64,000 bases of DNA from a phage. The notes beneath the pieces were generated by a model that was not told where the DNA came from, ran no database searches, and worked only from the letters and a program-made list of their open reading frames with translations. The stretch lies in assembly GCA_012557565.1 (NCBI GenBank), contig GCA_012557565.1_3926.1. One strand, written 5' to 3'. The translations under genes and the position numbers were made by a program. Shown here piece by piece: positions 18,896 through 62,481 of this stretch. Position 1 is the first letter of the stretch, and every line of letters begins with the position of its first letter.

Positions 18896-19345
18896 ATGAT
18901 TTTTTGTAATTTACAAAAACATGTAATAGAAATTTTGTATAAAGAGTTTGGAACAGAGGGGACATTTGATTCTAATGAGGCTATTGATGTACTTCGAAAG
19001 AAAAGCCTATACATTAGAGGTCAATCAATTAATAATGCTCGTGGTTACTTGACAGCATTACGACAAACTGGTGTACTAATGACTGTAGGCCAGATAAAAA
19101 GTAAAGGTAGACTGAGCATTAACCAGTTAAATAAATCCTTCATGGAAAAGCACATCCAGCTATCACCATTATTGGATGAATCACATGAAGAACCTAAAAA
19201 TAAAGATGAGAACAAAATTGTTGACACAGACCCTGACGTAAGGTACTTTATTGAAAGTGCGATGTTTAATACCTTAGAAGAGGCTGTTGAGCATTGCAAA
19301 AAACACATCATTAAGATTAAACGTGCAAAGATTATTTGGGAATAA
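18896..19345 (+). CDS. hypothetical protein, tandem paralog A
   Basis: 149 aa; clear similarity to the next ORF (ILYKEFGTEG.FDSNEA..LR ... KIIWE). Confidence 0.6.
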   Translation: MIFCNLQKHVIEILYKEFGTEGTFDSNEAIDVLRKKSLYIRGQSINNARGYLTALRQTGVLMTVGQIKSKGRLSINQLNKSFMEKHIQLSPLLDESHEEPKNKDENKIVDTDPDVRYFIESAMFNTLEEAVEHCKKHIIKIKRAKIIWE

Positions 19346-19371: not shown

Positions 19372-19821
19372 ATGATTAGCTCATTTTATGTAACGCTTGT
19401 TGAGATACTACACGAAAAGTTCGGGACTGATAAGGAATTTGATTCCAATGAAGCGGTGAAAGCTCTAAGAAGTAATTGTGATTATCTTAAGAAAATGCCG
19501 ATAGCTAATTCAAGGTATTACTTATCAGCGTTGCGTAAAGTTGGGGTTCTCGTGACTGTCAAGCATGGTAGCAAAAATGGTGGAGTTCTTTATATCAACC
19601 AGTTAAGCAAACCATTTATGGAAAATGAACCACGACTAGCAAGACTGGTTACTGGTGTAAAAGACCAAGTAAAAACTACAGAAATCCAAATAATACAAGA
19701 ACAAAACCCAAATGTTAAGTACTTTATTGGTGAGATGATGTTTGATACAATGGATGAGGCAGTTGAGTATTGTAAAAAGAACATCATTAAATTAAAAAGA
19801 AAGAAAATTATTTGGGAATAA
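19372..19821 (+). CDS. hypothetical protein, tandem paralog B
   Basis: 149 aa; paralog of 18896-19345, same C-terminal KIIWE. Confidence 0.6.
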   Translation: MISSFYVTLVEILHEKFGTDKEFDSNEAVKALRSNCDYLKKMPIANSRYYLSALRKVGVLVTVKHGSKNGGVLYINQLSKPFMENEPRLARLVTGVKDQVKTTEIQIIQEQNPNVKYFIGEMMFDTMDEAVEYCKKNIIKLKRKKIIWE

Positions 19822-44439: not shown

Positions 44440-44823
44440 TCAGATTACCTGTGTAACTTGCAAAGCTTCTGTTACGGAGATATCACCAACTTTTTCTTCT
44501 TTGATGAAGGTGAAAGTCAGAAGAGTAGGGTCTGTAACCTCATCTTCCAGAGGGACACCATTTAGTTCATCAAAGATAGATTGTGTAGTCCAATCTTCCT
44601 GGCCATCTGGGTAGTGGTAAGCATAAAGTGGGAAGATAGTATCATACCACCCAAATACTGGACAGCCATCTTTATCATCACGAACATGGCGTAGTACATT
44701 TTCAGAATTTGTAAAACGAAGAAAAAGTTCTCCATTACGCTCATATATTGTAGCATCTACTAACTCATGTGTTTTCATGCCACGACGTGAAGTGTCAACT
44801 TTGACTTGAATCTCTTTATTCAT
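44440..44823 (-). CDS. hypothetical protein
   Basis: Track ORF 44440-44856; start likely internal Met near 44823. Confidence 0.45.
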   Translation of the reverse strand: MNKEIQVKVDTSRRGMKTHELVDATIYERNGELFLRFTNSENVLRHVRDDKDGCPVFGWYDTIFPLYAYHYPDGQEDWTTQSIFDELNGVPLEDEVTDPTLLTFTFIKEEKVGDISVTEALQVTQVI

Positions 44824-45226
44824 AATAACCTCTCTCAGCTTTCTCAATTTTGTCAAGAAGTTTCATACACTGGTCGTTATGGTAAATAGCCTCACGATTG
44901 TGTACTTCCTTCTGCTTCTCAAGTAGAGTTTTATAGTAACCTGATAACTGCTCTCTTGTCAAGGGGTGTTCTGAAATAATGTCTAAGGAACTCTCACCTA
45001 ACGAGAAAAACAAACCATTATCATCTACGTTGTAGAGTTCATTTGTGAAGAATCCCTTGTTAGCCATCGTGATAGGTGAACGCTCAATAACTTCCACAAT
45101 AAACTTGGTAATAACCTTATCACCGTAAGTGATAAGCTTGCTTCCATAAATCCTTACTTTCATACCACTTCTGGTATACTTAAAAGTCCCAACATCATCA
45201 GCCCAAAGTTTCATAGTTTTCTCCAT
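44816..45226 (-). CDS. hypothetical protein
   Basis: 136-aa ORF. Confidence 0.5.
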   Translation of the reverse strand: MEKTMKLWADDVGTFKYTRSGMKVRIYGSKLITYGDKVITKFIVEVIERSPITMANKGFFTNELYNVDDNGLFFSLGESSLDIISEHPLTREQLSGYYKTLLEKQKEVHNREAIYHNDQCMKLLDKIEKAERGYYE

Positions 45227-45232
45227 AGAAAT

Positions 45233-45256
45233 AAAAAAGGCTCCCGAAGGAGCCTC
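45233..45256 (-). terminator. rho-independent terminator (minus strand) downstream of endolysin
   Basis: Minus-strand reading GGCTCC-TTCG-GGAGCC then TTTTTT. Confidence 0.75.
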
Positions 45257-45264
45257 TTAATCTA

Positions 45265-45735
45265 CTATTTTGGATAAACAGCGTCAAGGTAAATTTTGGC
45301 TTCCAAACTACGCCTATTTTGTAGACCCTTGGAAGTTACTTTTTGACCATTCACTGTAATCTTGTTCCACCACTGCATAGCTTCTGCACAACCAGCTTTG
45401 TTACCAGCATTGTGACGCTTGATAAAAGTTGAATCCTGCATAGCACCGATGCCAATGTTGTAAGTCTCTACAACAAGTGCGTCAAATTCGTTCTGCGTAG
45501 TTGGAACCTTAATTGCTCTGTTTACTGCACCTACATAGTTTTCAACATCTGCAAGGAGATATTGAACAGCTTGTTCAGCAGTAATCTTCATCCCCATTGT
45601 TACAGGTCTTCCGTTGATACGGATTGTTCCATAGCCGATTGTGGGGATTCCAGCAGAGTCTTTATAAGCTTCTAAGCGAAGCCCTTCAAAGAACTTAATG
45701 GCTTCTAAGCCTTTACTTGAGAGTTGCATTATCAA
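45265..45735 (-). CDS. endolysin (phage lysozyme, GH24-like)
   Basis: LEAIKFFEGLRLEAYKDSAGIPTIGYG is the characteristic phage lysozyme N-terminal block. Confidence 0.75.
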   Translation of the reverse strand: MIMQLSSKGLEAIKFFEGLRLEAYKDSAGIPTIGYGTIRINGRPVTMGMKITAEQAVQYLLADVENYVGAVNRAIKVPTTQNEFDALVVETYNIGIGAMQDSTFIKRHNAGNKAGCAEAMQWWNKITVNGQKVTSKGLQNRRSLEAKIYLDAVYPK

Positions 45736-46364
45736 CCTCCTACTGCGTTAATAACCACCTTGGCAGATTGGGATGTGATTGAGCCACCTACACCAGTTAC
45801 AACACAAGAGTAAGTACCTTCATCATCAGCTTTAGAAGTCGGTGTCTTTTCATATGTTGCAGATGTTGCTGAAGGGATATCTACATCATCTTTCTTCCAC
45901 TGATAACCAGTTGCACCAGTAGCAACAACTGAAAGTGTAAGTGTTCCACCCTCGTTGACAGTTTGGTCAGTTGGCTGCTGTGTAATAACTGGAGGTGTGA
46001 TTGCATCCTTCAACTTTGCATTAAGCATAGAGAAAGGTTTAACCCTTGCCAACCATTCACAATAAACTGTGTCAACATCCTTCCCATTGATGATTGCATA
46101 CTGCAAGTCCATGAAGAAGTCAGCAGTCCTCATCTGAGCACCAACTGAATATAAAAGTTCTTCACTAAATGGGACTGTGTAGTCTGGTGTGTAATTGAAG
46201 TCAGTAACTTCTGGAATATCAGACTCAGGCCACGGTGAGCTATATGTCAGAGGCAGAACGGCCTCTTGATACTTTCTGAAGTCGTATCTTTTGCCAGCTT
46301 TAACATTCGCTACAAAGTCTTTAACGAACTCTTTAAAATCTGGATATGTCTTTGCTTTAATCAT
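45732..46364 (-). CDS. hypothetical protein with C-terminal Ig-like domain
   Basis: C-terminal PPVITQQPTDQTVNEGGTLTLSVVATGATGYQWKKDD...GTYSCVVTGVGGSITS has an I-set Ig-like pattern; N-terminal 120 aa paralogous to next gene. Confidence 0.55.
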   Translation of the reverse strand: MIKAKTYPDFKEFVKDFVANVKAGKRYDFRKYQEAVLPLTYSSPWPESDIPEVTDFNYTPDYTVPFSEELLYSVGAQMRTADFFMDLQYAIINGKDVDTVYCEWLARVKPFSMLNAKLKDAITPPVITQQPTDQTVNEGGTLTLSVVATGATGYQWKKDDVDIPSATSATYEKTPTSKADDEGTYSCVVTGVGGSITSQSAKVVINAVGG

Positions 46365-46729
46365 TTCTTAGCCTCTAATCTTGCATTTAGTCTAAAATAA
46401 CCTTTGTGCTGCGGTGAAACATCACCTACAACAACTCCGTCAATCTTATAGCCTTTACCCATCACATATTGAATATCCATCAAAAATGTACCAAGACCAA
46501 CGATATGAAACATTGGGTAAAGAAGTTCTTCAGTATCTGGTAGAGGAATTTTAGGTGTGTATTCGGAATGTGTTTCGGTAGGGTTGATATCCTTCTCAGG
46601 CCATTTGCTATCACGCCATGTTAAGGGTGTCGGAAGTACATCATCAAGATTATACCTGTCACCTTCTTGAACACTTTGGACATAAGATTGTAGGAAGCAA
46701 TAAAAGTCTTTTCCACTCTTTGCCTTCAT
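46361..46729 (-). CDS. hypothetical protein, paralog of the N-terminal domain of 45732-46364
   Basis: Shared blocks YPDFKEFV/GKDFYCFL, RYDF/RYNL, EELLY, FFMDLQYA/FLMDIQYV. Confidence 0.5.
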   Translation of the reverse strand: MKAKSGKDFYCFLQSYVQSVQEGDRYNLDDVLPTPLTWRDSKWPEKDINPTETHSEYTPKIPLPDTEELLYPMFHIVGLGTFLMDIQYVMGKGYKIDGVVVGDVSPQHKGYFRLNARLEAKK

Positions 46730-46746
46730 TATCTATCCTTAACAAA

Positions 46747-46768
46747 TAAAAGGGGCTTTCGCCCCATA
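46747..46768 (-). terminator. rho-independent terminator (minus strand)
   Basis: Minus-strand reading GGGGC-gaaa-GCCCC then TTTT. Confidence 0.65.
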
Positions 46769-46772
46769 AAAC

Positions 46773-47363
46773 TTAAGCCATAGTCTTAAGCATGTTTTTA
46801 AGTTTTTTGAGATTCATTGTCTCATCCAACTTAAATCCAAATCCATTGACGTATTCAATGAAATCAGATTTCTTACTCAGAGATAACGCATAGTTCATGT
46901 CAAAGTCATTACTTGGAGTGGACTCTGGAGAGGTGTTCACATCGAAAGAAATCTCTGTGGATGCCTCTTCAGACTCTCTGAGGTTATCAATCACAACACA
47001 TGTGTAGTTTGCTGGAGAGAACGATGTTGAACCAGCCACATAACTGTATTTAGCATTGTGGATAAGATTTGAGAATACTTTGAAGAATGTTTCTGAATCA
47101 TGACATACCAGTTTAAATTCACTATTAGCACCTAGAGCCATGAGTGAATATGGACTTTCACCATCAATGCTATAATCTGGGTTCATTGCCTGAACAGTAA
47201 CACGCATCAAGTTATTTGCAATTGTTTTCTGTTTAAATGAATCAGGTACGTAGTGCATACCTCTTTCACATTGATTAACCAACTCTTTAAGAAGGTCATC
47301 AGAATATGGTGAAGTGATTGATACAGACCCGTCACCATTATAATTAAAACTCACGTTTAACAT
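46773..47363 (-). CDS. hypothetical protein
   Basis: 196-aa ORF. Confidence 0.5.
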   Translation of the reverse strand: MLNVSFNYNGDGSVSITSPYSDDLLKELVNQCERGMHYVPDSFKQKTIANNLMRVTVQAMNPDYSIDGESPYSLMALGANSEFKLVCHDSETFFKVFSNLIHNAKYSYVAGSTSFSPANYTCVVIDNLRESEEASTEISFDVNTSPESTPSNDFDMNYALSLSKKSDFIEYVNGFGFKLDETMNLKKLKNMLKTMA

Positions 47364-47590
47364 TTATCAGTTCTCCTACGATTGATAATCTTGCTGCAAT
47401 AGAGAAATGAAGCAAATTCACTGGAAGAAACCATTAGAACCTGTTCACTAGATTGAGCTATTGCTCTGAAATACATACCAGTTAGTGCATCATAGTGCTT
47501 ATTCTTTCCAATTGAAGTGATATACCCATGACTCTTTGCAGTTTGGTATAAATCAATAATATCTGTGATTTCTAGTTGGGAGCTACACAT
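47357..47590 (-). CDS. hypothetical protein
   Basis: 77-aa ORF, first gene of minus-strand module. Confidence 0.45.
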   Translation of the reverse strand: MCSSQLEITDIIDLYQTAKSHGYITSIGKNKHYDALTGMYFRAIAQSSEQVLMVSSSEFASFLYCSKIINRRRTDKC

Positions 47591-53654: not shown

Positions 53655-53882
53655 ATGTTTAAACTCATAGTTGAAAAACACCCAGAAGATGACAAGCTTG
53701 AAACAGGGAGATTTGGAGATACTTTCTTTATCAGAGTTGGCTGGAAAGCTGACCCATTAGAAGTTAGAAAGATTGTCTACAACTTTGCTGGTTTGGAATT
53801 AAAGCAAGTCATCTTTGAAACAATGTTGCCAGAAAATAAAGATACATGCAATAACGCATATATTCTTACAAGAGTTAGTTAG
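53655..53882 (+). CDS. hypothetical small protein, tandem paralog 2
   Basis: 75 aa MFKLIVEKHPEDDKLE... paralogous to 53383-53610 (shared FETMLPENKDTCNNAYILTRV). Confidence 0.55.
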   Translation: MFKLIVEKHPEDDKLETGRFGDTFFIRVGWKADPLEVRKIVYNFAGLELKQVIFETMLPENKDTCNNAYILTRVS

Positions 53883-53956
53883 GGGATTAGTTTACAAGGT
53901 TAAAACCTCGGTCTTTGAAATCGAAGAAGTTGGTTCAATTCCAACATCCCCCGCCA
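53881..53956 (+). tRNA. tRNA-Gln(TTG)
   Basis: D-stem GTTT/AAAC, anticodon stem TCGGT/ATCGA, loop CTTTGAA, T-arm GTTGG-TTCAATT-CCAAC, CCA; 1:72 mismatch. Confidence 0.7.
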
Positions 53957-53958
53957 AT

Positions 53959-54037
53959 GCTCCATTACTCCAATTGGCAGAGAGGCCAGACTTAAAATCT
54001 GTGTTATGTATCGGTTCGAATCCGATATGGAGTACCA
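53959..54037 (+). tRNA. tRNA-Leu(TAA)-like, short variable arm
   Basis: Acceptor GCTCCAT/ATGGAGT, 3-bp D-stem, loop CTTAAAA, about 7-nt variable region, A73, CCA; 79 nt. Confidence 0.6.
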
Positions 54038-54043
54038 AATATT

Positions 54044-54119
54044 AGCAGTGTAGCATAACTGGCAATGCTCCAGCCTCTGAAGCTGAAAGATTAAGGTTCA
54101 AATCCTTACGCTGCTGCCA
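54044..54119 (+). tRNA. tRNA-Gln(CTG)
   Basis: D-arm GCAT-AACTGGCA-ATGC, loop CTCTGAA, T-arm TAAGG-TTCAAAT-CCTTA, CCA. Confidence 0.7.
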
Positions 54120-54121
54120 CT

Positions 54122-54149
54122 TCTAAGGGTTCTTACGAGAGTCCTTAAA
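54122..54149 (+). other. conserved-loop hairpin (loop GTTCTTACGAGAGT), copy 2
   Basis: Stem TAAGG/CCTTA around the loop seen at 50798-50811. Confidence 0.6.
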
Positions 54150-54150
54150 T

Positions 54151-54227
54151 GTGGCCTTATCATAAATGGATAATGACCCATGCTGTGAACATGGTCTATA
54201 CGGGTTCGATTCCCGTAGGTCACCCCA
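54151..54227 (+). tRNA. tRNA-His(GTG)
   Basis: Acceptor GTGGCCT/AGGTCAC, D-stem TCAT/ATGA, anticodon stem CCATG/CATGG, loop CTGTGAA, C73, CCA; no encoded G-1. Confidence 0.75.
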
Positions 54228-54235
54228 ATTTTAAT

Positions 54236-54311
54236 AGCTCAATTAGCTTATATGGTTAAAGCGCGTGTCTGAAAAACATGAGAACAGGGTTCAAATCCCG
54301 ATGGGCTACCA
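54236..54311 (+). tRNA. tRNA-Phe(GAA), imperfect T-stem
   Basis: Anticodon stem CGTGT/ACATG, loop CTGAAAA, D-stem GCTT/AAGC, CCA; T-stem has mismatches. Confidence 0.55.
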
Positions 54312-54327
54312 ACTTTATAGGTGCATA

Positions 54328-55062
54328 ATGAAAGAGATGACAGAACAAGGTAAAGAGATTTTTAATCTCCTTAAAACTGGTAATGGGTTCTCTAACCCTC
54401 TTATTACTGGTGCAGCAGTTCTTGGTGGTACTGTAGCTGCTTCTCAATCATTAGTGAACTCAATTAGTTCTGTAACAGACCCTGCAACACAACAGATTTT
54501 AGTTGCTGCTGGACTGACAACAGCCTTATTAGGAAGCTTCACAACAAGCCTTGGAAGTACAACTTCAACGACAAGTACACTCACTGAGTATGGACAAAAG
54601 TCTGTAGATGAGTTTTCACAACGTATGCAAGTAGCTAAAGGTTACTCTAACGTTATGGGAGCAGCAGGTGAACAGGTTGGATGTACACCGTTTAGCGGTA
54701 TCATGGGCGTAGCTACCGAGTACGGTAATAAAGCGATGGATTTGATTAATACCTCCATAGACGCTGTAAATAGCGTCCTAAGCGATTTGCAAGATGCAAT
54801 CGACCAAGGACTAGATACAATCTCTGAACTCGCTACACAGGCCGTTACAGCGATTAATGAGGGTATTACAAAGATTACTGCATATGCTAATGAAGTAACT
54901 CAGATGATTGCAGATGAAGCAGCACTGATTGCAGAATACCTGAAAACAAATATTAATGGTTTCCTTGCGAATGTTCTACCAAGCTGGTTTGACGATTCAT
55001 GTAAAACTGGTGTGATTGATACTATCGCAACTCCAGAGATGAAAGAAGCTCTGAACAAATAA
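54328..55062 (+). CDS. hypothetical Thr/Ser/Ala-rich protein inside the tRNA cluster
   Basis: Track ORF 54265-55062 overlaps tRNA-Phe; trimmed to ATG 54328 (AGGTG 4 nt upstream). Confidence 0.5.
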   Translation: MKEMTEQGKEIFNLLKTGNGFSNPLITGAAVLGGTVAASQSLVNSISSVTDPATQQILVAAGLTTALLGSFTTSLGSTTSTTSTLTEYGQKSVDEFSQRMQVAKGYSNVMGAAGEQVGCTPFSGIMGVATEYGNKAMDLINTSIDAVNSVLSDLQDAIDQGLDTISELATQAVTAINEGITKITAYANEVTQMIADEAALIAEYLKTNINGFLANVLPSWFDDSCKTGVIDTIATPEMKEALNK

Positions 55063-55063
55063 T

Positions 55064-55156
55064 GGAAGATTAACCCTAAAAGGTAAGGGAGCAGTTTGCT
55101 AAACTGCCAGTAACCGAGAAATCGGCGTACCAGTTCAAGTCTGGTATCTTCCTCCA
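55064..55156 (+). tRNA. tRNA-Ser(GCT), class II
   Basis: Perfect acceptor GGAAGAT/ATCTTCC, anticodon stem GCAGT/ACTGC, loop TTGCTAA, long variable arm, T-arm ACCAG-TTCAAGT-CTGGT, CCA. Confidence 0.75.
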
Positions 55157-55162
55157 AATTAT

Positions 55163-55238
55163 GTGTCGGTGTCAGAAATGGTTATGTGCCTGTCTGCAAA
55201 ACAGGTTTATGAGGGTTCGAGTCCCTTCCGATACTCCA
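55163..55238 (+). tRNA. tRNA-Cys(GCA)
   Basis: Anticodon stem CCTGT/ACAGG, loop CTGCAAA, T-arm GAGGG-TTCGAGT-CCCTT, CCA. Confidence 0.75.
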
Positions 55239-60968: not shown

Positions 60969-61346
60969 ATGGCATATCAAGGTTTTACACATTTAGGTAA
61001 CAGAGAACCTCTTAACGATATTATCCTTTGGGAACAGATTACACCAACTGGACATTCTCGTAAAGAGTACGCTCCAGTAGCCAGCACAGAATACCGTGTA
61101 GGTGAAGTTCTGAAAGCTGATGGTACTAAGGTCGCAGCAGGTGAAGAATCTCAGGCAGACTCTGTATGTATCGTTAACTTCTACGCAGACCTGCAACTGT
61201 CTTATCATGGTCAGTTAAAAGTCGTTGGTATCTACCGTGACGCTGAACTGAAAGACATGCTGACTTTGGCAGAAAGCGTTGATGCTGCTGCTGTCAAGAC
61301 TGCTCTGAAGGCGAAAGGTATTGATTTCGTCCCAACTGGCCTGTAA
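60969..61346 (+). CDS. hypothetical head protein
   Basis: 125 aa between protease and putative major capsid gene. Confidence 0.45.
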   Translation: MAYQGFTHLGNREPLNDIILWEQITPTGHSRKEYAPVASTEYRVGEVLKADGTKVAAGEESQADSVCIVNFYADLQLSYHGQLKVVGIYRDAELKDMLTLAESVDAAAVKTALKAKGIDFVPTGL

Positions 61347-61377: not shown

Positions 61378-62481
61378 ATGTTGACTAATTCTGAAAAAAG
61401 CAGATTTTTCCTTGCTGATTTAACTGGTGAAGTCCAGTCTATTCCAAATACTTACGGATATATCTCTGGTCTGGGACTGTTCCGTTCTGCTCCACAAACA
61501 CAGACTACTTTCCTGATGGACTTGACTGATTGGGATATTAGCTTGCTGGATGCGGTAGACCGTACTAGCCGTAAAGCTGAGACTAGCGCTCCTGAGCGTG
61601 TTCGTCAGATTAGCTTCCCAATGATGTACTTCAAGGAAGTTGAAAGCATTACTCCTGATGAGATTCAGGGTGTTCGTCAGCCAGGCACTGCAAATGAACT
61701 GACTACTGAAGCAGTTGTACGTGCTAAGAAGCTGATGAAGATTCGTACCAAGTTCGATATTACTCGTGAGTTCCTGTTCATGCAAGCTCTGAAGGGTAAA
61801 GTTATTGATGCTAACGGTGTTCTGTACGCAGACCTGTACAAGCAGTTCGATGTAACTAAGAAGACTATCTACTTCGACTTGGACAACCCGAACTCTGATA
61901 TCGATGCACATATTGAAGACCTGCGTATGCACATGGAAGATGAAGCTAAGACAGGTACTGTAATCAACGGTGAAGAAATTCACATCGTTGTTGACAGAAC
62001 TTTCTTCAGTAAGCTTATCAAGCATCCTAAGATTCGTGACGCATACCTTGCACAGCAGACTCCGCTGGCTTGGCAACAGATTACTGGTTCTCTGAGAACT
62101 GGTGGTACTGATGGTGTTCAGGCTCACATGAACCGCTTCTACTACGGTGGTGTTGTATTCGTACAGTACAACGGTAAGTTCAAAGACAAGCGTGGTAAGA
62201 CTCATACTCTGGTTAGCATTGACGGTGTATCTGATACTAATGTTGGTGTAGGTCACGCATTCCCTAACGTAGCAATGTTGGGTGAAGCTAACAACATCTT
62301 CGAAGTTGCTTACGCTCCATGTCCTAAGATGGGTTATGCAAACACTCTGGGTCAGGAACTGTATGTGTTCGAATATGAGAAAGACCGTGACGAAGGTATT
62401 GACTTCGAAGCCCACTCTTACATGCTGCCATACTGCACACGTCCTCAACTGCTTGTTGACGTTCGTTCAGACGCTGAGTAA
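61378..62481 (+). CDS. putative major capsid protein
   Basis: 367 aa, position after protease/scaffold, biased codon usage (synteny only). Confidence 0.5.
   Translation: MLTNSEKSRFFLADLTGEVQSIPNTYGYISGLGLFRSAPQTQTTFLMDLTDWDISLLDAVDRTSRKAETSAPERVRQISFPMMYFKEVESITPDEIQGVRQPGTANELTTEAVVRAKKLMKIRTKFDITREFLFMQALKGKVIDANGVLYADLYKQFDVTKKTIYFDLDNPNSDIDAHIEDLRMHMEDEAKTGTVINGEEIHIVVDRTFFSKLIKHPKIRDAYLAQQTPLAWQQITGSLRTGGTDGVQAHMNRFYYGGVVFVQYNGKFKDKRGKTHTLVSIDGVSDTNVGVGHAFPNVAMLGEANNIFEVAYAPCPKMGYANTLGQELYVFEYEKDRDEGIDFEAHSYMLPYCTRPQLLVDVRSDAE

Follow-up and report, generated by a model that had tools for sequence, protein, structure and literature searches.

The 210-aa Ig-containing protein encoded just upstream of the endolysin in this phage is, judged by homology, the hexamer-centre capsid decoration protein (Hex-Dec) of its relatives, in a form whose single Ig domain appears to have arisen by deletion, and the 122-aa product of the gene that precedes it is a paralog of its capsid-binding domain (CapBD) alone. 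We put the probability of this joint reading, which concerns the identities and excludes the function of the paralog, at about 0.85. The stretch of DNA analyzed here (the window, 64,000 nucleotides) belongs to Mooglevirus (Ounavirinae, FelixO1-like), with 95% identity to Mooglevirus genomes by megablast, and its source is a FelixO1-like T=9 myophage of that genus. The Hex-Dec of the window has already been solved in relatives and is ordinary; the paralog is the part left unexplained in the literature consulted. The features on which the argument draws are as follows.

46752..46765, minus strand: terminator-like GC hairpin and T-run just upstream of the paralog gene, the upstream boundary of the unit
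46361..46729, minus strand: CapBD-only paralog, 122 aa, without an Ig domain (phrog_4463), ortholog of FelixO1 ORF37 and VpaE1 gp40
45732..46364, minus strand: putative Hoc-like hexamer-centre decoration protein (Hex-Dec), 210 aa, one-Ig allele (phmmer, PHROGs)
46005..46364, minus strand: capsid-binding domain, aa 1-120 of Hex-Dec (aa 1-119 identical to PDB 9C2D chain S)
45744..45995, minus strand: single Ig-like domain of I-set/Ig_3 type, aa 124-207 (Pfam; pLDDT 94-97; alignment)
45890..45920, minus strand: Ig1/Ig2 crossover zone, 31 nt, codons ~149-158 (TGATGYQWKK), identical in both 252-nt repeats
45265..45729, minus strand: GH24 (T4-lysozyme-type) endolysin, third gene in the unit (Pfam Phage_lysozyme, 1.1e-38; phrog_7, endolysin)
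45235..45258, minus strand: terminator-like hairpin and T-run just downstream of the endolysin gene, the downstream boundary of the unit
61378..62481, plus strand: major capsid protein (MCP), the putative binding partner of Hex-Dec, with D221 present (translation ...KHPKIRD221AYL)

Read along the coding (minus) strand, the genes run in the order paralog, Hex-Dec, endolysin; the 210-aa protein lies immediately upstream of the endolysin, as an earlier note on this DNA had stated (open reading frames 45732-46364 and 45265-45729, both on the minus strand). The stop codon of the paralog gene and the start codon of the Hex-Dec gene overlap by ATGA, and the GGAGG ribosome-binding site of the endolysin gene sits inside the last Hex-Dec codons. 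Lying between two terminator-like hairpins, the upstream one of which is also kept in FelixO1 and fBSPA4, the three genes appear to form one tight unit. The trio is syntenic across Ounavirinae, being found in FelixO1, in VpaE1 and in one metagenomic phage that is ~50% divergent. By RT-PCR in FelixO1, ORF36 has a late peak along with the morphogenesis genes, ORF36 and ORF37 both reach their maximum at 60 min, and the endolysin (ORF35) is placed at 25 min rather than at 60 min (PMC3185647); because of this difference in endolysin timing, the trio may not be one simple operon. A sigma-70 promoter scan returned fewer sites than shuffled sequence, so that no promoter can be assigned to the unit. 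The Hex-Dec gene is ~15 kb away from that of the capsid protein, is carried on the other strand and sits among small uncharacterised genes; the flanking 196-, 136- and 127-aa proteins match no family in Pfam or NCBIfam and, in PHROGs, match only families of 'unknown function'.

When the 210-aa protein was searched against the PDB with phmmer, it matched chain S of two entries, 9ncf_S (2.2e-186) and 9c2d_S (1.9e-152), and among the PHROGs it matches phrog_3995 at 2.2e-120. By these measures it is an ortholog of Sf14 gp20, Bas63 Hex-Dec and FelixO1 gp36; the KPS64 record already names its own ortholog 'putative capsid decoration protein, similar to Sf14 gp20'. Sf14 gp20 was located on the capsid by cryo-EM and detected in virions by mass spectrometry (PMC11821841), FelixO1 gp36 (31.6 kDa) was found in virions with 44% coverage by mass spectrometry (PMC3185647), and Bas63 Hex-Dec occupies the facet-edge hexamers only and is encoded >10 kb from the structural module (PMC12609058). 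In Sf14, R79 and R107 make salt bridges to D221 of the MCP (PMC11821841); both of these anchor residues are present in the window Hex-Dec, and both are invariant across 116 CapBD clusters.

Transferred from Sf14, Bas63 and FelixO1, these relations would place the window protein on the virion at the pentamer-adjacent hexamers. The N-terminal domain of ~118 aa would plug, as a monomer, all 60 hexamers of this class at their centres, anchored through R79 and R107 to Asp221 of the MCP, and the C-terminal Ig domain would point outward from the capsid. By likeness to T4 Hoc, the Ig domain may confer weak adhesion, either between particles or between the particle and a surface or mucus. AlphaFold2 models the CapBD within the 210-aa protein poorly (pLDDT 30-58), and the Sf14 authors report that the AlphaFold CapBD disagrees with their density (PMC11821841).

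The gene next to Hex-Dec encodes what the earlier note had taken it to encode, a paralog that corresponds to the first ~120 aa and lacks the Ig domain: BLASTP aligns the two proteins at 37% identity over 123 aa (E=3e-18), and their families cross-match reciprocally (phrog_3995 against phrog_4463, 1e-14 to 1e-16). The sequence relations claimed for the pair are real and far beyond chance. The paralog is a full-length member of phrog_4463 (1.6e-77), a family of hypothetical proteins, and has no family in Pfam or NCBIfam. Its only matches in the PDB by phmmer are 9c2d_S (1.1e-12) and 9ncf_S (1.6e-10), and a Foldseek search with its AlphaFold2 model, a model of moderate quality (pLDDT 64.9 overall), returned the same two chains only (probability 1.0, TM 0.59), with the next match at E=0.9. 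The papers on Sf14, Bas63, FelixO1 and VpaE1 do not discuss how the paralog relates to the Hex-Dec CapBD.

Of 253 related phage records, 233 (~92%) contain the paralog. Among members of Felixounavirus and Mooglevirus its identity is 74-100%, and at a dN/dS of 0.10-0.15, as against 0.03-0.05 for CapBD, it appears to be under purifying selection. Comparison of 48 paralog clusters with 116 CapBD clusters yielded 37 columns that are invariant and shared and 38 that are fixed differently. Where CapBD has R79 the paralog has G78 (98% of the 48 clusters), and where CapBD has R107 it has Q106 (R in a few clusters). The last residue of the paralog, aa 122, falls at the CapBD boundary, and no outward display domain follows, whether Ig, Big_2 or other. 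The paralog is an ancient copy of nothing but the capsid-binding domain, and its surface appears to have been re-specified, with R79 changed to G among other positions. In an HMM scan, the contigs that carry distant CapBD proteins (P0057, P0059 and P0060) showed one CapBD gene each and no stand-alone paralog, so that the duplication is confined to the Felixounavirus/Mooglevirus clade and one divergent metagenomic lineage. The paralog is missing from ~20 related isolates, and fBSPA4, a viable isolate, holds a decayed remnant of it; the Hex-Dec CapBD of fBSPA4 differs by six conservative substitutions, with no compensatory change among them.

Our preferred view of what the paralog does, held at somewhat less than even odds, is that it may serve as a late, accessory and dispensable head-morphogenesis factor. 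Through its CapBD fold it would engage capsomer centres or Hex-Dec itself, transiently or sub-stoichiometrically, and in the mature virion it would have no ordered, stoichiometric place. Neither synonymous codon usage nor GC3 assigns the gene to the structural or to the early class, the log-likelihood ratios of the two comparisons overlapping within ±0.05.

It is unlikely, if conceivable, that the paralog is instead a second hexamer-centre plug, one that fills those 20 hexamers that sit on icosahedral 3-fold axes and that Hex-Dec leaves unoccupied. The CapBD fold and the 37 invariant columns, including the loop PLT-x-S-x-WPE-x-DI, have been kept, and the switched residues correspond to R79 and R107, the very ones that set the preference of Hex-Dec for quasi-3-fold hexamers; the late peak that FelixO1 ORF37 shares with ORF36 and the ATGA overlap with Hex-Dec in the window point the same way. 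Two cryo-EM studies, of Sf14 (PMC11821841) and Bas63 (PMC12609058), nevertheless show no density at the other hexamers. At the 3-fold hexamers this negative is weak, because a monomer bound on the axis would be averaged out, smeared in icosahedral and C1 maps alike. The paralog does not appear, either, among the virion proteins listed for FelixO1 by mass spectrometry, a list restricted to proteins of at least 25% coverage and in which low-copy 14-kDa proteins are easily missed (PMC3185647), or, as far as the text of the VpaE1 paper allows one to infer, in the VpaE1 virion list; 20 copies of a 14-kDa protein would fall under such cut-offs. Its dispensability, seen in its decay in fBSPA4 and its absence from ~20 isolates, argues further against a plug. 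Still more speculatively, the paralog might account for the unassigned C3 density seen at the tip of the Bas63 tail needle, with two helices in each 120 degrees.

Recruitment to a function away from the capsid, be it in lysis timing or endolysin modulation or as a host or defence factor, with the fold alone being kept, we likewise judge improbable. The gene pair adjoins the endolysin, and even distant lineages have their single CapBD gene beside a lysozyme; in those lineages, however, the lysozyme neighbour is a decoration protein bearing a display domain and not the paralog, so that the adjacency belongs to Hex-Dec. The many fixed differences between the paralog and CapBD, the ~2-3 times faster evolution of the paralog protein and the failure to see it in virions would all suit a new role, but the protein has neither a transmembrane segment nor a signal peptide, it matches no lysis, defence or anti-defence family in Pfam, PHROGs or NCBIfam, and FelixO1 has no holin in its endolysin region (PMC3185647). 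If the paralog binds capsids, the pair would be a case of paralogs sharing out quasi-equivalent capsomer classes and would reveal a blind spot in symmetry-averaged cryo-EM; otherwise, a capsid-binding fold would have been re-used inside the cell. Either outcome would be of moderate, specialist interest.

The C-terminal part of Hex-Dec is the I-set-type Ig-like segment that had been read from its letters. Pfam Ig_3 matches it at 1.3e-09 (aa 124-190, profile positions 1-77 of 78), I-set at 7.6e-07 (positions 1-85 of 90) and Ig_2 at 1.9e-06, each over its curated cut-off, and AlphaFold2 folds aa ~125-207 into a beta-sandwich with pLDDT 94-97. Alignment with the Sf17, KPS64 and KMM4 proteins leaves an exact gap of 84 aa in an otherwise identical sequence, and the single Ig domain of the window protein is a hybrid, made of the N-terminal part of Ig1 and the C-terminal part of Ig2 of its two-Ig relatives. 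The crossover was mapped by comparing the window gene with the Sf17, KPS64 and KMM4 genes in prefix and suffix register: the window gene agrees with repeat 1 as far as gene position 475 and, from position 445 on, with repeat 2, at an offset of 252 nt. The one-Ig allele appears to derive from a two-Ig gene by an exact, in-frame deletion of 252 nt that joined Ig1 to Ig2, and because the join falls within 31 nt common to both repeats, it points to homologous recombination or replication slippage.

A deletion of exactly one repeat unit, inside a stretch identical between the repeats, is also what would be left by an assembly artefact in which two tandem 252-nt repeats had been collapsed, an explanation that we consider very improbable. 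In a self-comparison the repeats differ at many positions outside the 31-nt identical stretch, and so are too divergent to collapse. One-Ig forms are, moreover, common: the same 210-aa architecture occurs in the independently sequenced SFPB and Henu11, the protein databases hold ~40 clusters of 210-aa forms, and the exact window protein is found again in assemblies of E. coli and S. flexneri at NCBI, on four ~88-kb contigs. AlphaFold2, finally, predicts a well-folded Ig domain for the hybrid. Across the genus of Bas63, Hex-Dec proteins carry 1-4 Ig domains (PMC12609058). The window provides a clean example of how this number may change, by unit-length recombination between tandem Ig-coding repeats. 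One-Ig Hex-Dec scaffolds could serve phage-display engineering, for which Hoc and pb10 have been used.

That the Ig protein, and with it the paralog, which UniRef names in the same way, should be tail proteins is a notion we give almost no credence, widespread as the label is. phrog_3995 is annotated 'tail protein', many GenBank records say tail or tail fibre protein, FelixO1 gp36 was called a 'major tail protein' in 2010, and the window protein matches the PHROGs of major tail proteins phrog_158, phrog_853 and phrog_3575. These tail matches span the Ig domain only (aa ~96-207), however, whereas the N-terminal domain has been built into hexamer-centre density in two independent cryo-EM structures (PMC11821841, PMC12609058), and the Bas63 paper states that 'tail protein' is a mis-annotation (PMC12609058); Hex-Dec itself matches no tail family in Pfam or NCBIfam. 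For the orthologs, a tail protein is refuted by the solved capsid structures. The gene should read Hoc-like capsid decoration protein (Hex-Dec), and both 'tail protein' and 'hypothetical' are wrong.

Just as remote is the view of the earlier note, that this is a non-structural Ig protein with an intracellular or lysis role in a non-structural module: the gene does lie beside the endolysin, far from the capsid gene and on the other strand, but orthologs with an identical capsid-binding domain are in virions by mass spectrometry and cryo-EM, and FelixO1 ORF36 peaks with the morphogenesis genes. The domain calls, the paralogy and the endolysin neighbor in that interpretation stand; the Ig protein as a non-structural oddity does not, its CapBD being identical to the one modelled in the Sf14 capsid and its homologs being present in FelixO1 and Sf14 virions. 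Far from being an exception to the rule that phage Ig domains are on virion surfaces, the 210-aa protein follows it, because it would itself be a virion surface protein. Its location outside the head and tail module is correctly described, and this placement far from the head genes had been pointed out for FelixO1 in 2010 and for Bas63 in 2025. Two outcomes had been named as able to overturn the view of the pair, the lack of an Ig profile match and an identity as tail-fibre chaperones; the profile searches found Ig matches and, for either protein, no tail-fibre chaperone match in Pfam, PHROGs or NCBIfam.

Among known decoration systems, T5 pb10 resembles the window protein in its Ig domains, which match at 4e-10 and 1e-9 (PDB 8ZVI and 5LXK). 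The matches to 8zvi_a and 5lxk_A cover aa ~131-192 only, and the N-terminal capsid-binding domains have no detectable sequence similarity; with no homology found between the capsid-binding domains, the window Hex-Dec would fall outside the pb10 family. With T4 Hoc it would share the plan of a monomeric, non-essential, hexamer-centre decoration whose Ig-like domains reach outward from the capsid in a string. We know of no CapBD-only paralog in T4. The capsid-binding domain of Hoc is C-terminal (Ig-Ig-Ig-CapBD), whereas in the window CapBD precedes Ig; Hoc-like head decoration PHROGs match the Ig part only, aa 124-205 (phrog_4069, 5.9e-14), and the capsid-binding domains of Hoc and Hex-Dec have a distinct topology with minimal sequence similarity (PMC12609058). 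The window Hex-Dec would work like Hoc but is not a member of the Hoc family.

Closer relatives lie in the sister genus Felixounavirus, where the orthologs Bas63 (JohannRWettstein) Hex-Dec (PDB 9NCF chain S) and FelixO1 gp36 have a CapBD ~87% identical to that of the window, bind facet-edge hexamers only and, as here, are encoded beside the endolysin and downstream of the paralog (ORF35, 36 and 37 in FelixO1); the Bas63 protein carries four Ig domains and the FelixO1 protein two, against one in the window. Within Mooglevirus itself, Sf14 gp20 (PDB 9C2D/9C3A chain S) has the same gene position, an identical CapBD over aa 1-119, R79 and R107, I-set-type Ig repeats following the CapBD and an upstream CapBD-only paralog that is 98% identical, and it differs from the window protein in having three Ig domains (372 aa) where the latter has one (210 aa).

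By its sequence, the phage is a FelixO1-like myophage of the subfamily Ounavirinae. Megablast with nucleotides 44800-47400 returned 234 phage records, the best of them Mooglevirus genomes at ~95% identity (Citrobacter phage KMM4 and Shigella phages Sf13, Sf17 and KPS64), followed by Felixounavirus genomes; the window also carries T=9-type head genes (terminase, portal, protease, the beta-tulip decoration protein Dec and the major capsid protein, MCP) and an array of 25 tRNA genes (50010-55238, plus strand; ARAGORN and Rfam). Directly preceding this array is the gene of a 471-aa protein (48429-49844, plus), whose position corresponds to that of an Sf17 gene with the annotation 'RNA-binding protein, DUF2828'. 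Cellular Ro60-type (TROVE) proteins pair with tRNA-like Y RNAs, so that this arrangement may deserve attention. An extra, weak Rfam tRNA match lies within the array at 50918-50992 (plus; 30.9 bits, barely over the gathering score), at which ARAGORN makes no tRNA call, and could represent a degenerate or unusual tRNA-like element. The features on which the analysis turns are as follows.

46765-46752, minus strand: terminator-like hairpin and T-run, just upstream of the paralog gene
46729-46361, minus strand: paralog gene, 122 aa, first of three tightly packed ORFs
46364-45732, minus strand: Hex-Dec gene, 210 aa, second of the three ORFs
45729-45265, minus strand: endolysin gene, 154 aa, GH24 lysozyme (Pfam Phage_lysozyme, 1.1e-38)
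45258-45235, minus strand: terminator-like hairpin and T-run, just downstream of the endolysin gene
60969-61346: beta-tulip Dec gene, T=9-type head module
61378-62481: MCP gene, T=9-type head module, with D221 present

The packing of the three minus-strand genes is arranged for coupled translation. The paralog stop codon overlaps the Hex-Dec start in an ATGA (46361-46364), the endolysin start lies 2 nt past the Hex-Dec stop, and the last Hex-Dec codons (GTA GGA GGT TGA, V-G-G-stop; 45732-45745, minus) supply the GGAGG Shine-Dalgarno site of the endolysin, so that the Hex-Dec C-terminus is constrained.

The C-terminus of the 210-aa protein matches Pfam Ig_3 (1.3e-09), I-set (7.6e-07) and Ig_2 (1.9e-06), each over its curated cut-off and with almost complete profile coverage, and AlphaFold2 models residues ~125-207 as a beta-sandwich (pLDDT 94-97). 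PDB sequence searches matched chain S of the Bas63 capsid (9NCF, 2.2e-186) and chain S of the Sf14 capsid (9C2D, 1.9e-152), the latter identical over residues 1-119. Sf14 gp20 is a Hoc-like decoration protein, found in virions by mass spectrometry, of which a monomer sits at the centre of every pentamer-adjacent (quasi-3-fold) hexamer; it attaches through its N-terminal 118 aa (the capsid-binding domain, CapBD), with Arg79 and Arg107 forming salt bridges to Asp221 from three MCP subunits, and its Ig domains point outward, unresolved in the map (PMC11821841). The same findings hold for Bas63 Hex-Dec, whose gene lies >10 kb outside the structural module, whose frequent 'tail protein' label is a mis-annotation, and which carries one to four Ig domains across Felixounavirus species (PMC12609058). 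In FelixO1 the same gene is ORF36 (gp36, 31.6 kDa), flanked by endolysin ORF35 and ORF37. R79 and R107 are retained in the window protein, as is D221 in its MCP. Every PHROG match to a 'major tail protein' or 'Hoc-like' family is restricted to the Ig domain. By every defining feature that sequence can address, the window protein belongs to the Ounavirinae Hex-Dec/gp20 family. The earlier note had placed it in a non-structural module; it is instead, judging from its CapBD and the retained contacts, a structural protein whose gene lies apart from the structural module, a location already described in the literature. With orthologs solved on capsids and the contact residues kept, Hex-Dec fits the general rule for phage Ig domains, namely that they decorate virions.

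The window's Hex-Dec is a one-Ig hybrid allele within this known family. Its orthologs in Sf17, KPS64 and KMM4 have 294 aa and two Ig domains; every aligned residue is identical, and exactly 84 aa are missing from the window protein. Relative to the two-Ig genes, the window DNA tracks repeat 1 through gene position 475, and from position 445 on it matches repeat 2, placing the crossover inside a 31-nt stretch (45890-45920, encoding TGATGYQWKK) that is identical between both 252-nt repeats. Such a join is the hallmark of tandem Ig-coding repeats that have undergone unequal homologous recombination or slippage during replication, and it yields an Ig1/Ig2 hybrid predicted to fold well. The one-Ig form is not rare: the same 210-aa form occurs in SFPB and Henu11, the exact protein in other NCBI assemblies (four contigs, the longest 88 kb), and a length of 210-215 aa in ~40 of the ~120 database clusters listed, on which grounds we rejected an assembly artefact. 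NCBI records the exact Hex-Dec and the exact paralog under isolate assemblies of E. coli and Shigella flexneri (EFG4626585.1, EGE3641517.1), on ~88-kb contigs that are entire lytic-phage genomes carried along in bacterial assemblies.

The paralog aligns to Hex-Dec residues 2-119 (37% identity, E=3e-18), and the PHROG families of the two proteins match each other at 1e-14 to 1e-16. The ORF, Pfam, AlphaFold2, alignment and PHROG results therefore bear out in full detail the earlier note's observation of an Ig-type C-terminus beside the endolysin and a neighboring Ig-less relative of the N-terminal ~120 aa. A PDB sequence search with the paralog matched only the two solved CapBDs (1.1e-12 and 1.6e-10), and Foldseek with its AlphaFold2 model, of moderate quality (pLDDT 64.9), recovered only the same chains (9C2D_S and 9NCF_S; probability 1.0, TM 0.59; next E=0.9). 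Alignment and modeling thus show the paralog to have the CapBD fold. Elsewhere in the window, two adjacent 149-aa ORFs of the early region (18896-19345 and 19372-19821, plus), with visibly alike N-termini (EILYKEFGTEGTFDSNEAIDVLRK and EILHEKFGTDKEFDSNEAVKALRS), look like a further tandem paralog pair.

The paralog is old and conserved. It is present in 233 of 253 related phage records (73-100% identity), and a ~50% divergent metagenomic phage retains the trio (122-aa paralog, 298-aa Hex-Dec, 154-aa lysozyme). In this 87-kb Ounavirinae-like phage, a protein matching Pfam Gad1 (PF25705; L009 11510-12369, L010 8967-9826) lies a few kb downstream of the trio; the Pfam name hints at a possible anti-defence function. 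A profile search run exhaustively against 1.84 billion representatives found only 12 clusters in the CapBD superfamily. Its more distant members, from metagenomic contigs L011, L012/L013 and L014/L015, are single-copy; their outward modules are Big_2 (P0057, P0058, P0061) or an I-set-like Ig (P0059), and P0060 has nothing beyond CapBD except a Lys/Ser/Glu-rich tail. In L014 the single CapBD gene lies directly upstream of a lysozyme gene, close to DUF5681 and DUF2828 genes; decoration protein and endolysin were therefore neighbors before the duplication. The paralog is under purifying selection, weaker than that on CapBD (dN/dS 0.10-0.15 versus 0.03-0.05). A comparison of 48 paralog clusters with 116 CapBD clusters gives 37 columns that do not vary in either family and 38 that are fixed differently; the 38 include R79 (G in the paralog) and the entire segment around R107 (ARVKPFSM in CapBD, PqHKGYFR in the paralog), a pattern of functional divergence.

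FelixO1 ORF36 and ORF37 are both maximal at 60 min, together with morphogenesis genes, and the paralog ortholog is not on the FelixO1 virion mass-spectrometry list (PMC3185647); from the VpaE1 list, where only gp54, gp58 and gp68 were detected beyond the FelixO1 set, its absence (gp40) follows by inference. About 20 of the 253 records lack the gene. In the viable isolate Salmonella phage fBSPA4 a decayed remnant persists (L005 3849-4040): its ATG start has become ATA, its reading frame is shifted and ~220 nt are deleted internally, beside an intact upstream hairpin, an intact Hex-Dec start and a nearly unaltered Hex-Dec CapBD. The paralog is dispensable. We tentatively favor, at a probability of roughly 0.4, a late, accessory and non-stoichiometric factor that would act in head assembly through a re-specified CapBD surface. 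Its chief alternative, in which the paralog fills the 20 hexamers on the icosahedral 3-fold axes, seems unlikely to us; in exactly this class, which Hex-Dec avoids for that reason, D221 is shifted with respect to R79 and R107. Cryo-EM of Sf14 and Bas63 showed no density at hexamers other than the Hex-Dec-bound class (PMC11821841, PMC12609058), and a monomer on a 3-fold axis would be averaged out in icosahedral and C1 maps alike. A role unrelated to the capsid seems slightly less likely again; in distant lineages the gene beside the lysozyme encodes the decoration protein rather than the paralog. Separately, the Bas63 tail-needle tip is capped by an unassigned C3 density of two helices per 120 degrees (PMC12609058, section 11), and in Sf14 the corresponding place holds a dome-shaped cap (PMC11821841); the paralog, like other small unassigned proteins expressed late, is no more than a formal candidate for the Bas63 density. 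The word 'paralog' is absent from the Sf14, Bas63, FelixO1 and VpaE1 papers, in which FelixO1 gp37 and VpaE1 gp40 go undiscussed, and the protein is an uncharacterised, conserved relative of a known domain.

Apart from the paralog, literature from 2010-2025 essentially explains the finding. The Hex-Dec mechanism is established in relatives and should transfer to the window phage through sequence identity: CapBD would plug the 60 facet-edge hexamer centres by pairing R79 and R107 with D221, displaying one Ig domain per site. Because of the analogy with T4 Hoc, and because the Bas63 whisker contacts the Hex-Dec Ig domains (PMC12609058), we infer that these domains may adhere weakly to surfaces or mucus, aggregate particles or make contact with whiskers. 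Hex-Dec works like T4 Hoc yet is not a Hoc-family member, and T5 pb10 has the same architecture but forms a separate family; it resembles the two in its Ig domain only, and CapBD differs in topology and position.
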